From NCBI GenBank assembly GCA_030656575.1, contig JAUSPO010000030.1, positions 63,298-127,297 of the forward strand: a stretch of 64,000 bases of DNA, in the 5' to 3' direction. The DNA is from Bacillota bacterium (GTDB lineage: Bacteria; Bacillota; Dethiobacteria; DTU022; UBA8154). Each line of letters starts with the position of its first letter. The first letter of the stretch is position 1. A program made the position numbers and the translations under genes. Below are positions 3,137-57,896 of this stretch, in pieces. The notes beneath the pieces are model-generated. The model was not told where the DNA came from. It made no database searches and saw only the letters and a program-made list of their open reading frames with translations.

Positions 3137-3194
3137 AATACTTAAGTTCTCTCATTATTCCAGATTTCGGGCACTCCGACTCCGGCTCCAAAGA

Positions 3195-3360
3195 CACGGG
3201 GACGGTTCCATCGTCTTCCCATTAGCTTAGGTATGGGGACACACCTCATTTTTCAAGTGGTATGGGGACACACCTCATTTTTCAAGTGGTATGGGGACAC
3301 ACCTCATTCAGAGGAATGTCCCCTATGGAATGTCCCCTATGGAATGTCCTCAAGTCCTTC
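3195..3360. repeat. degenerate, internally triplicated copy of the palindromic repeat element (hairpin GGGGACACACCTC...GAGGAATGTCCCC)
   Basis: cacggggacggttccatcgtcttccc matches the element at 55656-55680. It is followed by three copies of a 29-nt unit (gtatggggacacacctcatttttcaagtg) and two or three copies of gaatgtcccctatg. Confidence 0.6.
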
Positions 3361-3487
3361 GCTGCACTAAGCCCGTGTAGTTACTATTATTTTATCATAT
3401 CTCAATATAAGCTGAAAGTTAGATTGCCTAAAAGCTCTCTTTTGGGATAGAATTAAAGTTACAAATTAGAAAATGGTGGAGTGAATA

Positions 3488-7219: not shown

Positions 7220-8923
7220 ATGTCTGACCTTTTAGTCAAAAGACAATTACTTAAAGTTGATCGGGTAATTGGTGAGGATACGGTTCGGGAAACAGTTGAA
7301 GCCACCATTACACTGCCTTTTTCCATCATCAAAGTATTTGATGTAATCGCCAGCGTAACCGACATTGAAACTGAAACGAAGGAAGGAGGCGTTATGGTCT
7401 CCGGGGTTATTCACAAGCAGCTTTTTGTTGTGGATAAGGGAGATGTGGTACGCCATGTTCCTGAAGACGTTCCCTTTAGCGTCTTTGTAGATATTCCGGG
7501 GACGACCAATAATATGGACGCCCATGTGGATGTGCGCATCCTTGCCCTGGACACAGAAGTGCTAGAATACGGTAAGAAAGTGCGGCAAACCATTGTTCTG
7601 GAGATATTTGTCAAAGTTACCACCATCCAACAGATCGAAGTAGTTATCGATGTTCTTGGTAAGGATATCATCGTCAAAAAAGAACTGCTTAAGGTAGATA
7701 GTGTGGTCGGAGAGGACACTGCAGTCTTTACTCTTACCCCTACCGCAACTCTGCCCATAACGGCCAAGAAAATCTTTCGCATCATCCCTTCAGTGCGTGA
7801 TGTAAGCGCAGAGGTAAAGGAGAACACCGTGATTGTGAAGGGTGTCATCCACAAGCAGATTTTCCTCGTTGATGAAGGGGATCTGGTGCGCCATGTCGCT
7901 GAGGATGTTCCCTTTACCCGGACGGTCGATATTCCCGGTGCCAGGCCTGGTATGGATGTGCAGGTGAGAGTCAGGGTAGTACTTGAAGATTTTCAGTTAG
8001 TTAATCCTCCCAGCCGTCAGCTGCGCCAGACCCTTGTTGTGGAAGCCTTTGTGAAGGTTACGGAGGTACTTCAGATCGAAGTAGTGGTTGATGTGCAGGG
8101 TAGGGGCATTGAGGTAATCAAAAAGCTTCTCAAAGTGGAAAGCGTGGTTGTAGATGTGCGTCAGAAAGAGACGCTCCGCTCGACTGTAACCCTGCCGCAG
8201 AAGCCTACCAAGATTCTCGAGATTGTGGCCGAAATTGTCAACCTGAGGGCGGAGGCCCGTACCGACCAGGTGATCGTGAAGGGTATTCTCCATAAACAGA
8301 TCTTCTTTGTGGAAGAAGCAGGAGACCTGCTGCGCCACTTCCGGGAAGATGTGCCCTTTACCTTTGTAAAGACGGCCAGAGGGGCACGTCCGGGTATGAA
8401 CGTGCAGGTCCGGGCCAGTATTGTCGGAGAGATCATAACCAGGCTTAACGGCAGAGAACTGGAACAGACCGCCGTGATCGATATCTTTGCGAAAGTCACC
8501 CGCACGGTCCAACTTGAAGTATTAGTCGATGTAAGAAGAGTAGCGCCAGTTCCGCCAGTTCCGCCAGTTCCGCCGATTCCGCCGTTCCCGCCGAAGCCGC
8601 CACCGCTGGCGAAGAAGTACATTGTGCAGAAGGGTGATACTCTCTGGAAAATCGCCAAGCGCTTTGGGGTATCACTGGATGCCCTTATCAGGGCAAATCC
8701 ACAGATCCAGAATCCCGATCTGATTTTCCCGGGTGATGTTGTCTTTATTCCCGAAGTACATGTGCCAAAGCCTCCCACAAAGAGGTATGTAGTCCAAAAG
8801 GGAGATACTCTCTTTCTCATTGCCAAGCGCTTTGGGGTATCACTGGATGCTCTTATCAGGGCCAATCCACAGATTGCGAATCCTAACCTGATTTTCCCTG
8901 GAGATATAGTATTTATTCCTTAA
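7220..8923 (+). CDS. DUF3794 repeat protein with a Pro-rich linker and two C-terminal LysM domains (SipL/SpoVID-like morphogenetic coat protein candidate)
   Basis: Four DUF3794-like repeats, then PVPPVPPVPPIPPFPPKPPP, then two LysM units (YIVQKGDTLWKIAKRFGVSLDALIRANPQI.NP.LIFPGD.VFIP). Confidence 0.6.
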   Translation: MSDLLVKRQLLKVDRVIGEDTVRETVEATITLPFSIIKVFDVIASVTDIETETKEGGVMVSGVIHKQLFVVDKGDVVRHVPEDVPFSVFVDIPGTTNNMDAHVDVRILALDTEVLEYGKKVRQTIVLEIFVKVTTIQQIEVVIDVLGKDIIVKKELLKVDSVVGEDTAVFTLTPTATLPITAKKIFRIIPSVRDVSAEVKENTVIVKGVIHKQIFLVDEGDLVRHVAEDVPFTRTVDIPGARPGMDVQVRVRVVLEDFQLVNPPSRQLRQTLVVEAFVKVTEVLQIEVVVDVQGRGIEVIKKLLKVESVVVDVRQKETLRSTVTLPQKPTKILEIVAEIVNLRAEARTDQVIVKGILHKQIFFVEEAGDLLRHFREDVPFTFVKTARGARPGMNVQVRASIVGEIITRLNGRELEQTAVIDIFAKVTRTVQLEVLVDVRRVAPVPPVPPVPPIPPFPPKPPPLAKKYIVQKGDTLWKIAKRFGVSLDALIRANPQIQNPDLIFPGDVVFIPEVHVPKPPTKRYVVQKGDTLFLIAKRFGVSLDALIRANPQIANPNLIFPGDIVFIP

Positions 8924-9950: not shown

Positions 9951-9956
9951 CTTAAG

Positions 9957-10042
9957 CGGTGCCATGGGGACGGTTCGAGCGTCACCGTAGCGCAGCGAAG
10001 GACTTGGGGACATTCCTCTAAAAGAGGTGTGTCCCCTTACCA
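9957..10042 (+). repeat. left part of the palindromic repeat element (copy A), ending in hairpin GGGGACATTCCTC-taaaa-GAGGTGTGTCCCC then TTACCA; serves as the 5' exon of the intron
   Basis: Nearly identical (reverse complement) to 55689-55776. Confidence 0.7.
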
Positions 10043-11963
10043 GTGCGCCACGCATGGCGATTAACTTGGTGGTGAAAGTCCACTATGGGGGTCTGTAGTT
10101 ACCAACCATTAGCCAAGAGCAAGGGTGTCCATCGTGAGGTGGAATCTGAAGGAAGCTGGAGGCAAAATTCCGACCCAAGGAACACGAACATCATCAGGCA
10201 TAAGGTATGGGATGAGTTTGCTGGACAAAACGAAATCCAATAACTACACGGACATACCACTGTAAATGATGTGGGTACATGGAATGAAAGTGAATCGTCT
10301 TACCGTGGGAGGTCTCATGGACGTGAGGAGATGGAATTCGAATCACGGTTGAAACAAGATTTATCATGAGAAGTCAGCAGATACCATAGTACTCGATGAA
10401 GTCTACGTCGTCGAGGAAGGGTTGAACCTCAGGGGGTGAAAGTAAATGAATGTTACCGAGACAGAAGGAAAGTACAGCCAACCTCAGAGGGCTTCCGAAG
10501 GAAGCAGCAACGAGGGCTTACCGCAAAAGGATAGTGCGGAACACGAAAGATATGCGGGAGCGTACAATTCTGGGAGGATAACGGAAAACAACCTCACCGA
10601 TGCAAACAAGCCGAAGGAAAGATTACTTGAGGAAATATTGGACAATCAGAATATGAACAACGCATTCAAACGTGTCAAGTCCAATAAAGGAGCTCACGGA
10701 GTCGATGGGATGGGAGTAGATGAACTTCTACAATATCTCAAAGAAAACGGAGACCAACTCAGGCAATCAATTCTGGATGGGAAATACCATCCTAACCCCG
10801 TCAGAAGGGTAGAGATACCCAAAGAAAACGGGAAGAAAAGAAAATTGGGAATACCTACGGTAGTGGACCGAGTAATACAGCAGGCAATAGCCCAAGTGCT
10901 TACTCCCATCTTCGAGAAGCAGTTTTCAGACAACAGCTACGGGTTTCGACCCGGGCGGAGTGCTCACGATGCAATCAGGAAATGTCAGGACAACATAGAC
11001 GAAGGATACAAATATGTTGTTGACATGGACTTGGAAAAGTACTTCGACACAGTTAACCAAAGTAAGCTGGCAGAAGTATTATCCAGGACGATAAAAGATG
11101 GGCGCGTAATATCGCTCATCCATAAATATCTGAGAGCAGGAGTAATAGTCAAGCACAGTTTCGAAGAAACGGAAATCGGCGTACCACAGGGTGGACCACT
11201 CAGTCCAATTCTTAGCAACATCATGCTTAACGAACTGGACAAGGAACTCGAAAGAAGGGAACACAGGTTTGTCCGCTTCGCAGATGATATAGTCGTCTTC
11301 TGCAAAAGCAGTAGAAGTGCGAAACGCACACTTGAAAACATACTACCCTTCATCGAGAAGAAGCTATTCCTTAAAGTGAACAGAGAGAAAACGGTGGTTG
11401 ACTACGTAGGAAAAGTGAAATTTCTTGGGCTCTCGTTCTATCGATACAGAGGTAAAACGAGGGTCAGAATTCATCCCAAATCAATTGCAAAGATGAGAAA
11501 TAAAGTAAGAGAGCTTACTTCCAGAAGCAATGGAATGGGCAACACAGCCAGAGCTGAAAAGCTCAGACGCTATATTATGGGGTGGATTAACTACTTCAAG
11601 ATAGCGGACATGAAGAAGCTGATGACCATTACGGACGAATGGATGAGAAGGCGTATCCGCATGATTTACTGGAAGCAATGGAAACGAGTGAAGACAAGAG
11701 TTAAAATGCTAAGGTCACTCGGCATCCATGAACAGAAAGCATGGGAATATGCAAACACAAGAAAGGGCTACTGGAGAATCTCCAATAGCCCAATCATGTC
11801 CACATCCCTTGGAAACAATATCATCAAAGGATTTGGATACCTATTCTTTTCTGAGTACTATCGGCGAGTTACAGCGTAAACTGAGGAACCGCCGTGTACC
11901 GAACGGTACGCACGGTGGTGTGGGAGGTCGGCTACTCAAATAATGGGTAGCCTCCTACCCGAT
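10043..11963 (+). mobile_element. group II intron, 1921 nt, hairpin-targeting with an endonuclease-less RT (bacterial class C-like behaviour)
   Basis: 5' end is GTGCG and the 3' end is ...CCCGAT. A domain V-like hairpin (ccgtgtaccgaacggtacgcacgg) lies at about 11890-11915. The intron encodes the RT at 10446-11879. Removing 10043-11963 recreates the junction ccccttacca|tagatagtgggaag seen in the empty copy at 55.6 kb. Confidence 0.8.
10446..11879 (+). CDS. group II intron reverse transcriptase/maturase (no HNH endonuclease domain)
   Basis: RT blocks FRPGRSAHDA, VVDMDLEKYFDTV, GVPQGGPLSPILSNI and the YADD box FADDIVVF, followed by a maturase X domain. The C-terminus lacks Cys/His En motifs. 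Confidence 0.9.
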   Translation: MNVTETEGKYSQPQRASEGSSNEGLPQKDSAEHERYAGAYNSGRITENNLTDANKPKERLLEEILDNQNMNNAFKRVKSNKGAHGVDGMGVDELLQYLKENGDQLRQSILDGKYHPNPVRRVEIPKENGKKRKLGIPTVVDRVIQQAIAQVLTPIFEKQFSDNSYGFRPGRSAHDAIRKCQDNIDEGYKYVVDMDLEKYFDTVNQSKLAEVLSRTIKDGRVISLIHKYLRAGVIVKHSFEETEIGVPQGGPLSPILSNIMLNELDKELERREHRFVRFADDIVVFCKSSRSAKRTLENILPFIEKKLFLKVNREKTVVDYVGKVKFLGLSFYRYRGKTRVRIHPKSIAKMRNKVRELTSRSNGMGNTARAEKLRRYIMGWINYFKIADMKKLMTITDEWMRRRIRMIYWKQWKRVKTRVKMLRSLGIHEQKAWEYANTRKGYWRISNSPIMSTSLGNNIIKGFGYLFFSEYYRRVTA

Positions 11964-12012
11964 TAGATAGTGGGAAGACGATGGAATCGTCCCCATGGCT
12001 TAGCGATGGTGA
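11964..12012 (+). repeat. right part of repeat element copy A (3' exon side), carrying the terminal inverted repeat gaatcgtccccatggc
   Basis: tagatagtgggaagacgatggaatcgtccccatggcttagc equals the reverse complement of 55648-55688. Confidence 0.7.
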
Positions 12013-12042
12013 CGTAGGGGATGTCAGCTTTAGCTTAACAAG

Positions 12043-12588
12043 TTACTTTTCGCGGGGCATGCAGATAATTTCTTTTACAACCGTATCAAAGAACTGGTTG
12101 GAATGAGCAGGAATTATGACACAGGCAGTGTCGGCCCCTTTCCCGCTGCCGGCTACAGACACAATTTCTTCTCCGTAAGGGACAAGCCCGGCATCAAGGG
12201 CCATAGATGCTATTTCGACACAAACCTTTACCCCCTGCCCAAGCATGCGCAGGGATGCAGCGATAATTTCTGCAGGATAGAGCCCGCCAAATTTTAAACG
12301 GAGGGCTCTGTCCACTCCGGCCAGAAGATGGGTGGTGGTGAGGATCTGAACTCCTTTTTGCAGGAGTTCTTCTTTTATTTCAGGGTTCGTTTCGCTGACT
12401 CCAGGACCTGAAAAGCCAACATGATGAGTAACCCAGACCACCTGGACTTCCCTGTCTAAGAAAAGCTGAGCTGTTTTTCCGGTATTTGAGGCTGTAACTA
12501 TGTACTTAATATCTAGCTCTGCAGCTCTTTTTAAAGCTGCTTCCACAGTAGAATTTGTATTCTGAGGACCTCTCTTTTCCCATAGCAC
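12043..12588 (-). CDS. stand-alone pyruvate-kinase C-terminal (alpha/beta) domain-like protein
   Basis: 181 aa with resemblance to the PK C-terminal domain (IVTASNTGKTAQ ... VWVTHH); weak call. Confidence 0.35.
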   Translation of the reverse strand: MLWEKRGPQNTNSTVEAALKRAAELDIKYIVTASNTGKTAQLFLDREVQVVWVTHHVGFSGPGVSETNPEIKEELLQKGVQILTTTHLLAGVDRALRLKFGGLYPAEIIAASLRMLGQGVKVCVEIASMALDAGLVPYGEEIVSVAGSGKGADTACVIIPAHSNQFFDTVVKEIICMPREK

Positions 12589-32237: not shown

Positions 32238-32262
32238 GGGGACACACCTCATCGAGGAATGT
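32227..32262. repeat. solo copy of the repeat hairpin GGGGACACACCTC-atc-GAGGAATGTCCCC, directly after the hisB stop
   Basis: Direct read; same hairpin as in the 3.3-kb, 10.0-kb and 55.7-kb copies. Confidence 0.55.
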
Positions 32263-32291
32263 CCCCTATGGAATGCCTAATGGATGTCCCT

Positions 32292-55546: not shown

Positions 55547-55647
55547 ACTTTCTTTATAGTTAAGCTGAAGCATCCAGGCTGCGGAAACCGTGGCCTTTTT
55601 TTGTAGCTGTTATCACTACATCGAAAGATTGCTTGTTTCGTTACATC

Positions 55648-55776
55648 GCTAAGCCACGGGGACGGTTCCATCGTCTTCCCACTATCTATGGTAAGGGGAC
55701 ACACCTCTTTTAGAGGAATGTCCCCAAGTCCTCCGCTGCGCTGCGGTGACGCTCGAACCGTCCCCATGGCACCGCT
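55648..55776. repeat. intact, intron-free copy (copy B) of the roughly 130-bp palindromic repeat element, inverted relative to copy A; an unoccupied group II intron homing site
   Basis: Terminal inverted repeats ccacggggacggttc / gaaccgtccccatgg, with the internal hairpin ggggacacacctc-tttta-gaggaatgtcccc. The reverse complement matches 9957-10042 plus 11964-12012 contiguously. Confidence 0.75.
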
Positions 55777-55904
55777 TATCTCTTTTCCCCTTGTTTCTCC
55801 TACGTTTGAGTCTTTTTTCTTTTACTGTTTATGTGGTATAATATTCTGATAGGCTGCTTGTAGTTAATAAAATTTTAGAGGAAAAGGGAAGGGTTTGGGG
55901 AACC

Positions 55905-57896
55905 ATGTCAAAGTTTCAATTAGTTTCTGATTTTTTACCCCAGGGAGACCAGCCCCAGGCTATTGAAAGATTATACAGGGGGCTGCAAGAGGGCTTGGAA
56001 CACCAGGTTTTGCTGGGAGTCACTGGTTCTGGCAAGACATTTACGATGGCAAATATCATTGAACGCTTCCAAAAACCCACGCTGGTGATGGCTCCCAACA
56101 AAACCCTCGCCGCTCAGCTCTGTAGTGAGTTTAAAGAGTTTTTCCCCCACAATGCAGTAGAGTTTTTTATAAGTTATTATGACTATTACCAACCAGAGGC
56201 CTATATTCCCCAATCGGATACCTATATTGAGAAAGATTCAGCCATTAATGATGAGATAGATAAGCTCCGGCATTCTGCTACCAGTGCCCTTCTTGAAAGG
56301 GAAGATGTGATCATTGTCGCCAGTGTTTCCTGTATTTACGGACTCGGTTCACCACTGGAATATGGGGAACAGGTTCTTTCACTGAGGGTAGGTATGCAAA
56401 AGAGCCGTGATGAGCTGCTGCGCAAACTAGTTGCCATTCAATATGAGCGAAACGATTATGATTTTTCCAGAGGTACCTTTCGCGTCCGGGGTGATACGAT
56501 CGAGATTTTCCCTGCTTCCTTTACTGACGCTGCTATCCGTGTGGAGATGTTTGGTGATGAAATAGAGAGATTAAGAGAGATCGATGTGGTTACAGGGGTT
56601 GTGCAGGCGGAACGTGATCACGTGGCTATTTTCCCGGCATCCCATTACGTGACGGGCAAGGAGCGCTTGGGGGAGGCAATCAGAGATATTGAAGAAGAAT
56701 TAAGCCAGCAGTTGAGAAGGCTCAGGTCTGAGGGAAAATTACTGGAAGCGCAGCGCCTTGAACAACGGACAATCTATGATCTGGAAATGATGCAGGAAAT
56801 GGGTTTCTGCACAGGTATAGAAAATTATTCCCGCCATCTGGACAGGCGTCCCTCCGGCAGCAGGCCGTATACCCTCATTGATTATTTTCCCCGGGATTTC
56901 CTGCTCTTTGTGGATGAATCACACGTGGGCATTCCACAGGTTAACGGTATGTATGCAGGGGATTTTTCACGTAAGAAAACTTTAGTGGAGCATGGGTTCC
57001 GTCTTCCTTCCGCCCTTGATAACAGGCCCCTGAAGTTTGATGAATTCAGCGCTCTCGTAAACCAGGTTATTTACGTTTCTGCTACTCCCAGCCTCTATGA
57101 GACGGGAAAAAGCGCGCAGATTGTTGAACAGATTATGAGGCCAACAGGTCTGGTTGATCCTGAGATTCATATCCGCCCTGTGGATGGACAGGTTGATGAT
57201 CTCTACGGTGAGATAAAAAAGAGGGTTTCCAAAAAGGAAAGAGTTCTTGTAACTACTCTTACAAAGCGAATGGCGGAAGATCTCACCGATTACTACCAGG
57301 AGATGGGGCTTAAAGTTAAATACATGCATTCGGATATTGATGCTCTGGAGCGTCTGGAAATCATCAGAGGCCTGAGAACAGGAGATTTTGATGTGCTCAT
57401 TGGAATTAACCTTTTAAGGGAAGGCCTAGATCTCCCGGAGGTTTCACTTGTGGCAATTCTGGATGCAGATAAAGAAGGATTTTTGCGTTCTGAGCGTTCT
57501 TTGATCCAGACTACAGGACGCGCTTCCCGTAACATTAACGGCCAGGTTATTATGTATGCTCATAAGATTACTCCTTCCATGCGTGCGGCCATTGACAAAA
57601 CGGAAAAGCGCAGGGAAAGGCAGGTTGCTTTTAACCTGGAGCACAATATTACCCCCAGGTCCATAGTCAAGTCTATCAGGGCACCTCTTGAGGCTACCAG
57701 GGTAATGGAAGAATCTTCTGTCTACTCTACGGAAAAGATCAGGGCTATGGGGCAGAAGGAGCGGGAGAAGCTGTGGCGTGAGCTTGAAAAAGAAATGAAG
57801 TCTGCTTCCCGTGAACTTGATTTTGAAAAAGCAGCGGAGCTAAGGGATATTATCTTTGAAATACGTTCCTCGGGTAAGAAATGGGCACAAAGGTAA
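55905..57896 (+). CDS. uvrB: excinuclease ABC subunit B
   Basis: [12 protein letters not shown], helicase motifs, and the C-terminal UVR domain. Confidence 0.95.

Follow-up and report, generated by a model that had tools for sequence, protein, structure and literature searches.

We analyzed a 64,000-nucleotide (nt) stretch of a Bacillota bacterium genome (GenBank assembly GCA_030656575.1, contig JAUSPO010000030.1, positions 63,298 to 127,297; hereafter the window), in which an insert of 1,921 nt splits a palindromic repeat. This insert is very probably an intact, probably mobile group II intron of bacterial class C (IIC), which targets a hairpin and lies within a composite palindrome of a Dethiobacteria genome. 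The placement in class Dethiobacteria comes from the UvrB protein of the window (55905-57896), which is 83% identical to proteins of Dethiobacteria metagenome-assembled genomes (MAGs) and 71% identical to that of Dethiobacter alkaliphilus.

The boundaries of the intron can be read from a natural empty site in the same window. The intron starts with GTGCGCC and ends with CCTACCCGAT (GTGCG...GAT). When positions 10043-11963 are excised, the joined flanks (9953-10042 and 11964-12008) align without any gap to the reverse complement of 55644-55778, over 135 nt and with 4 mismatches, and the junction reads ccccttacca/tagatag (here and below, the slash marks the insertion point). The two copies of the composite, at 9.95 kb and 55.7 kb, are thus 97% identical. 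The first-pass annotation of the window had proposed that removal of the insert restores the sequence found at 55.6 kb, and had placed the insertion directly after a GC-rich hairpin followed by TTACCA. Both statements hold, and the 55.6-kb copy is contiguous across the point where the intron would lie.

The insert carries the domains expected of a group II ribozyme. Rfam models of domains I to IV match at 10128-10298 (group-II-D1D4-3, 145.6 bits) and at 10340-10422 (group-II-D1D4-1, 49.5 bits). The model of domains V and VI (Intron_gpII, 44.8 bits) matches at 11887-11963, in a permissive scan of the sub-region only, and stops exactly on the final intron base predicted from the empty site. Domains I to VI are thus all matched, the 5' end is of the GUGYG type and the 3' end is AY, which agrees with the earlier identification of the insert as a group II intron. 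The bulged branch-point adenosine of domain VI would be position 11957. Related introns are 89-92% identical to it over the first 200 nt and 95-98% identical over the final ~95 nt.

Class IIC introns are marked by CGC as the triad of domain V, which is itself 2 bp shorter, and by an 11-nt epsilon-prime bulge with AGGAA; they also have a pairing of just 3-4 bp between intron-binding site 1 (IBS1) and exon-binding site 1 (EBS1), no EBS2, and a stem-loop in place of IBS2 (PMC1702495, Toor et al. 2006). In the Rfam alignment, domain V of the window intron has CCGCCGU where the consensus has GAGCCGU, i.e., a CGC instead of an AGC triad, and a 4-column gap leaves its distal stem 4 nt shorter. The AGGAA motif lies inside UCUGAAGGAAG (10144-10155), a bulge segment that is invariant in our alignment of related introns (alignment A1). 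Taken with the Rfam matches to domains I-IV and V/VI and with the best structural matches of the encoded protein, these features make the assignment to class C well supported at the level of sequence.

The ribozyme motifs are conserved and the open reading frame (ORF) of the encoded reverse transcriptase (RT) is intact. Its 477-residue product matches only RVT_1 and GIIM (group II maturase) in Pfam, and the same scan found no HNH or other endonuclease domain, in agreement with the first-pass description of an RT with an X/maturase domain and no HNH domain. The NCBIfam model group_II_RT_mat (TIGR04416) scores 431 bits for a cut-off of 300. An identity as a retron or Drt RT was rejected, as those models score far below their cut-offs. 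The annotation had named retrons and diversity-generating retroelements as the RT groups whose membership would speak against a group II intron; the former are set aside by these scores, and the models compared covered retrons, Drt and AbiA, with none for the RTs of diversity-generating retroelements. The best match in PDB is the RT of GsI-IIC (6ar1, 3e-129, aligned over 405 residues), followed by 7uim (1e-122), which we take to be the E. rectale IIC maturase, and by the RT fragments 5hhj/5hhl. These four matches have E-values of 1e-92 to 3e-129, compared with 2e-44 for LtrA (class IIA) and 7e-42 for the maturase 6me0, presumably a class IIB protein. On this ranking by similarity, IIC proteins fill the first four places among the solved structures and the grouping of the RT with class C is well supported. 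The protein search returned thousands of homologues, including a large cluster at ~80% identity in Desulfitobacterium, Desulfosporosinus, Desulfotomaculum, and Brevibacillus. The protein differs from the known IIC proteins by an N-terminal extension of ~58 residues, which its close relatives also have. One entry of the search, annotated as 'MAG: Bacillota bacterium', is 100% identical.

To compare exons and introns, we used the DNA fetched around seven RT homologues. In domain I, the loop variants UGGA, AUAA, UAAA, and AUCA covary with the exon ends CCA, UAU, UUUA, and UGAU, respectively, and 17 of the 19 distinct sites, including that of the window, pair at three or four positions in the EBS1 register. 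Hence, this loop can be assigned as EBS1, with a 3-bp UGG/CCA pairing at the window site. The domain V/VI elements and the exon-intron pairing, both of which the annotation had singled out as decisive, are thereby recovered. The 3' exon of the window opens with a T, as do those of most relatives, a few having C or G instead; as a putative IBS3, this base would fit an EBS3 common to the group. The intron begins 6 nt after the hairpin stem, within the 3-11 nt reported for IIC insertion sites, while its relatives at ~80% protein identity are inserted 8-9 nt after GC hairpins with T-runs. Since these relatives follow ordinary terminators, the lineage seems to target a hairpin and 3-4 bases, not this repeat specifically. 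The closest relative with usable flanks (locus L145, 84% RT identity) has the EBS1 UGGU and lies after an unrelated hairpin ending in TCCA, which argues against a link between the CCA specificity and the repeat. We found no tRNA near that site. These comparisons point to ordinary IIC targeting of a hairpin with a short IBS1, rather than to a specialization on the repeat, and they suit the earlier proposal of class C homing to stem-loops in the spacing, in the covarying pairing, and in the position of the relatives after hairpins.

Table 1. Positions in the window of the intron, its target and the related repeat copies.
Feature	Positions	Strand	Details
Left (5' exon) part of the 135-nt composite element	9953..10042	+	Gap-free match to 55689-55778 (-); contains the left shell arm plus the inner hairpin and its tail
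Target hairpin GGGGACATTCCTC-TAAAA-GAGGTGTGTCCCC, member of the REP-like family	10006..10036	+	Single-stranded DNA fold of -11.4 kcal/mol, z -4.0
Spacer (tail) TTACCA; its last three bases CCA (10040-10042) are the putative IBS1	10037..10042	+	Complementary to EBS1 UGG
Complete group IIC intron, 1,921 nt, GUGCG...AU	10043..11963	+	Boundaries from the empty paralog; Rfam domains I-IV and V/VI
AGGAA, IIC-specific epsilon-prime bulge motif	10150..10154	+	Sequence and Rfam domain I alignment
EBS1 loop UGGA; UGG (10222-10224) predicted to pair with exon CCA	10222..10225	+	Alignment A1 columns 181-184, covariation
RT/maturase ORF, 477 residues, no endonuclease domain, active-site motif RFADD	10446..11879	+	Pfam, NCBIfam and PDB matches
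Domains V and VI	11887..11963	+	Rfam Intron_gpII; CGC triad at 11890-11892; predicted branch-point A
Right (3' exon) part of the composite element, with the shell right arm GAATCGTCCCCATGGC	11964..12008	+	Gap-free match to 55644-55688 (-)
Rearranged third copy: three left half-arms, hairpin 3293-3323, three right arms with tails ATACCAC, ATACCAC, ATACCTA; unoccupied	3190..3375	-	
Fourth, solitary hairpin: loop GAT, tail TTACCTA; unoccupied	32238..32266	-	
Uninterrupted composite paralog; virtual insertion point between 55689 and 55688	55644..55778	-	135 nt, 4 mismatches

These data are compatible with the following route of insertion. The RNA-protein particle would recognize a single-stranded DNA stem-loop by its shape, with the 3-bp pairing of EBS1 and IBS1 (UGG/CCA) and the first base of the 3' exon adding to the recognition of the target, and reverse splicing would then take place 6 nt downstream of the stem. 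Because the protein lacks an endonuclease, the DNA copy would be made from a lagging-strand primer. The target would be the inner hairpin of the ~135-nt composite, and not a terminator: the hairpin has no T-run and was not called as a terminator. We infer that the element came first and the intron second, and that the intron may be active at present. A strong promoter-like site (11/12 matches) precedes the CAP-domain gene upstream of the intron and, with no terminator called at the hairpin, read-through transcription of the intron is plausible.

The strand of the insertion is in line with this route. Of the 16 bins of 4 kb, 15 have a positive GC skew, and the cumulative curve rises along the window; the + strand carries about 40 of the 50 ORFs of at least 150 codons. 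This suggests that the + strand is the leading-strand sequence, and thus that the parental + strand serves as template for the lagging strand. Of the four hairpins in the window, the filled one alone lies on the + strand, whereas the three empty ones lie on the - strand. Class C introns, which lack an endonuclease, use the lagging strands at replication forks (PMC10190682), and their preference for the lagging-strand template in insertion is given in PMC8919778, in a statement citing Robart 2007. The contrast between one filled site on this template and three empty ones opposite to it fits the replication-fork model for endonuclease-less introns, and the - orientation would offer a simple explanation for the lack of an intron in the identical site at 55.7 kb. 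The other empty copies also mismatch IBS3 or IBS1, as they read ATACCA/C at 3.3 kb and TTACCT/A at 32.2 kb.

In the genomes that we fetched, one of the 119 hairpins is followed by intron sequence (locus L025, in a Dethiobacter MAG). This sequence is a fragment of a different IIC intron, made of domain I only (Rfam 139.7 bits, no RT) and 73% identical to the window intron over the first ~275 nt, and it follows the same composite of shell and hairpin. Its EBS1, AGGU, could pair with the ACCU that ends exactly 6 nt after the hairpin, and it has an extra GTG before GUGUG. The tail ACCT/T is present in 39 of the 119 hairpins, whereas CCA is present in 4 and is never followed by T. A metagenome scan for the junctions GTGTGTCCCC-N3-14-GTGYGCCNNGCATGG gave 0 matches. 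The repeat has thus been colonized by IIC introns at least twice, but rarely, and its usable copies look limited to those with CCA-ending tails on the lagging-strand template. The first-pass annotation had seen in the dispersed repeat a supply of many landing pads. The repeat is indeed dispersed, with at least 112 loci elsewhere, but the notion of many pads finds little support, given the three empty hairpins out of four in the window and the single occupied one among the 119 elsewhere.

Some observations weigh against an intact, mobile and hairpin-targeted intron. The pairing of EBS1 with IBS1 is of 3 bp only, and position -4 is an A opposite an A. A second, identical target at a distance of 45 kb carries no intron, and only one contig is on record with this exact RT, i.e., there is no sign of proliferation. 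The active-site motif is RFADD (11266-11280) instead of the RYADD of the nearest relatives and of all the 119 other top homologues. The RT is thus alone among 120 in having F for Y in YADD and, although the change from Tyr to Phe is conservative, its activity may be reduced. Finally, the assignment of the replication strands comes from GC skew and the orientation of genes over 64 kb and not from a mapped origin.

Several alternatives were considered. The intron lineage could have co-evolved with the hairpin repeats, whose copies would then be dedicated landing pads. The EBS1 UGG fits the CCA tail of the composites of the window genome, where the cousins have AUA, UAA, and AUC; the tail of the hairpin has a conserved CC at +4/+5; and the other IIC fragment, in L025, lies after the same composite with an EBS1 fitting the tail of that copy. 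However, such a specialized homing sits poorly with an occupancy of 1/4 in the window and 1/119 in other genomes, with the empty result of the metagenome scan for hairpin-arm/intron junctions, with the scarcity of CCA tails (4/119, none followed by T), and with the relatives, as the UGG-type EBS1 of L145 is found at an unrelated hairpin ending in TCCA and all the others are at ordinary terminators. We thus regard it as improbable. It is less probable still, and in our view very unlikely, that no homing took place at this site, either because the composite reached 9.95 kb with the intron already inside or because the copy at 55.7 kb lost its intron by a precise deletion. Both composites are recent insertions relative to close relatives and, being 97% identical, one may have been copied from the other. 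Yet, the complementarity between EBS1 and IBS1 and the canonical geometry of hairpin and spacer are predictions of direct reverse splicing, the direct repeats at the ends of the element are weak (chance probabilities of 0.05 and 0.15), and we know of no mechanism that would move a 2.1-kb palindrome bearing an intron.

An assembly artefact, in which the intron was mis-joined through repeats, has to be considered for what appears to be a metagenome-assembled source: the identical RT is annotated from a MAG, and related metagenomic contigs show the same 5' exon with different 3' exons and are possibly chimeric. Such a mis-join is hardly credible here, since both junctions are base-precise when compared with the paralog, the exon end fits the intron's own EBS1, and the intron is flanked by the two halves of a single split palindrome. 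An intact IIC intron that entered the hairpin by ordinary targeting accounts best for these observations.

The composite that hosts the intron has outer arms GCCATGGGGACGGTTC and GAAYCGTCCCCRTGGC, and the left arm of this shell, GCCATGGGGACGGTTC, is at 9961-9976. The RNA fold of the uninterrupted copy has a 16-bp outer stem around three hairpins (-76.7 kcal/mol, z -8.4). A permissive scan of the empty element found no Rfam family for the composite; a match to FopS near the empty element was discarded as a chance match on a nearby terminator. The shell (GGGGACGGTTCGAGCGTCACCG...GGGAAGACGATGGAACCGTCCCC) recurs in about ten loci, and copies of the host repeat are sometimes clustered in alternating orientation. 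In one of the shell loci, in a Dethiobacter MAG (L046, 3952-4000), the shell is present without the inner hairpin. This suggests that the composite arose as a shell into which the hairpin was nested by a secondary insertion. In another locus (L137, 4013-4057), the 3' exon of a relative dwelling in a terminator starts with gtgagacgcGGGGACGGTTCatgcgtcc, which resembles the left arm of the shell.

Both copies of the composite seem to have arrived in the lineage of the window, since the orthologous spacers of close relatives are empty. In relatives whose UvrB proteins are 95% and 92% identical, the whole ~165-nt block upstream of uvrB is missing and the flanks align (55590-55790 compared with loci L158, L159, and L160). 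Similarly, a relative with a gene 93% identical to the small gene at 12043-12588 (L161) has ~16 nt between the convergent genes, compared with 2,092 nt of element and intron here (9951-12042). Judging from these alignments, the composite is itself a lineage-specific insertion. It resembles MITEs (miniature inverted-repeat transposable elements) in its terminal inverted repeats of 13-16 nt, in the absence of any ORF, and in its presence/absence polymorphism between close relatives. The 5-bp direct repeats CTTAA and GATAA adjoin the left ends of the copies and are found again 25 and 29 nt beyond the right ends that the copies share. Their chance probabilities are 0.05 and 0.15, which is not significant, and a target-site duplication at the ends of the composite is unproven.

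The inner hairpin forms a family of its own. The 31-nt sequence GGGGACATTCCTCTAAAAGAGGTGTGTCCCC is identical at 10006-10036 (+) and 55695-55725 (-), with 0 copies expected in shuffled sequences. Two further copies, absent from the first-pass annotation, are found at 3293-3323 (-), with two mismatches and 0 matches expected by chance, and at 32238-32266 (-). Beyond the window, the core arm pair GGGGACATTCC-N5-14-GGTGTGTCCCC is present in at least 112 loci in a scan of species-representative genomes. Among the matches listed, the hosts are Syntrophomonadaceae, Desulfotomaculum, Peptococcaceae, Pelotomaculum, Desulfoscipio, Dethiobacter, Desulfosporosinus, and other Clostridia. The arm sequences are conserved, and so is the internal T-T/T-G mismatch pair that they contain, and the upper stem shows compensating changes, with a mean of 2.29 consecutive pairs compared with 0.51 in shuffles (69 distinct variants). 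In the 3' tail (NNNCCT), C is present at +4 and +5 in 90% and 76% of the copies, and T at +6 in 79%. A difference between the two strands of the hairpin (G-T wobble compared with A-C) was considered and dropped, as the DNA folding energy is equal on both strands.

Many hairpins have extra left half-arms on the 5' side and an equal number of right half-arms with tails on the 3' side, which gives an arrangement L L L loop R R R. Such arrays are found in the window at 3190-3375, with three of each, in loci L036, L048, L050, and L078, and in others; they look like a nesting of copies into each other or an expansion by slippage. When we clustered all the ORFs of the 112 hairpin loci (at most 8 kb each), no recurrent neighboring protein or transposase emerged, and our literature search with the arm sequence returned only unrelated primer matches. 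Hence the hairpin family, with its arms conserved across Bacillota classes, its half-arm arrays, and neither an Rfam entry, a description in the literature nor a mobilizing protein found, is the less expected item of this analysis. It is conceivable, though we rather doubt it, that the inner hairpin represents an undescribed family of self-nesting mobile palindromes spread across several Bacillota classes, and that it has been exploited repeatedly as a terminator mimic by IIC introns with a matching EBS1 (UGG here, AGGU in the Dethiobacter fragment). If so, the locus would consist of three nested selfish layers, i.e., an intron in a hairpin in a shell.

Comparison with known systems places the intron close to the IIC introns GsI-IIC of Geobacillus stearothermophilus, B.h.I1 of Bacillus halodurans, and those of E. 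rectale and Oceanobacillus iheyensis. As in these introns, the ribozyme is compact, with a CGC triad, a short domain V and AGGAA, the pairing of EBS1 with IBS1 is in the range of 3-4 bp, a stem-loop would take the position of IBS2, and the RT has no endonuclease domain, with insertion predicted on the lagging-strand template. It differs from them in the target, which bears neither of the marks of a terminator considered above and is part of a dispersed repeat, and from its nearest relatives in the spacer of 6 nt instead of 8-9 nt. For the intron itself, this adds little beyond annotation. Still, the natural empty site and the series of covarying EBS1-IBS1 pairs make it a clean and boundary-exact example of IIC targeting, and it shows that a palindrome other than a terminator can replace the terminator stem-loop.

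In IIC-attC introns, the stem-loop target is the folded single strand of a repeated palindromic site that is not a terminator. The window intron likewise uses a repeated, non-terminator palindrome, but this repeat is not an attC site and there is neither an integrase nor a cassette array nearby. The link between IIC introns and the attC sites of integrons has been documented (PMC7923331). The other parallel concerns repetitive extragenic palindromic (REP) sequences: in Pseudomonas putida KT2440, a group II intron is associated with REPs in 2 of its 9 copies (Tobes and Pareja 2006, PMC1525189). That study gives the ratio of association only, with no analysis of EBS/IBS pairing or of empty sites. 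In both cases a group II intron lies within or beside a repetitive extragenic palindrome, but the window belongs to a different phylum and its repeat to a different family. The host repeat of the window shares with REPs, with bacterial interspersed mosaic elements and with MITEs its short imperfect intergenic palindromes, several per stretch (4 loci in 64 kb), with compensatory structure, inverted ends and no coding capacity. REPs are usually species-specific, unlike the hairpin core described here, which is conserved in sequence across several Bacillota classes and often has equal numbers of left and right half-arms. The models of MITEs and REPs also differ from our observations in that no transposase was found near the hairpin loci and target-site duplications are unproven.

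A few observations were made along the way on related introns and on the neighborhood. In one JGI contig (Ga0116588_1001165, loci L114 and L115), a related IIC intron and a unit of the IS91 family (Y2 transposase) alternate in tandem with a period of 3,464 nt. Each intron follows the terminator of a small ORF located 3' of the transposase gene, and the arrangement may result from tandem amplification, from rolling-circle products, or from an effect of assembly. Loci L132-L141 and L122-L131 show one 5' exon linked by near-identical introns to different 3' exons, as well as the converse, which suggests recombination between copies or chimeric assemblies. Lastly, positions 7220-8923 of the window, just upstream of the CAP-domain gene, encode a protein of 567 residues in which three internal repeats and a proline-rich linker are accompanied by two LysM-like repeats at the C terminus (KGDTLWKIAKRFGVSLDALIRANPQI).

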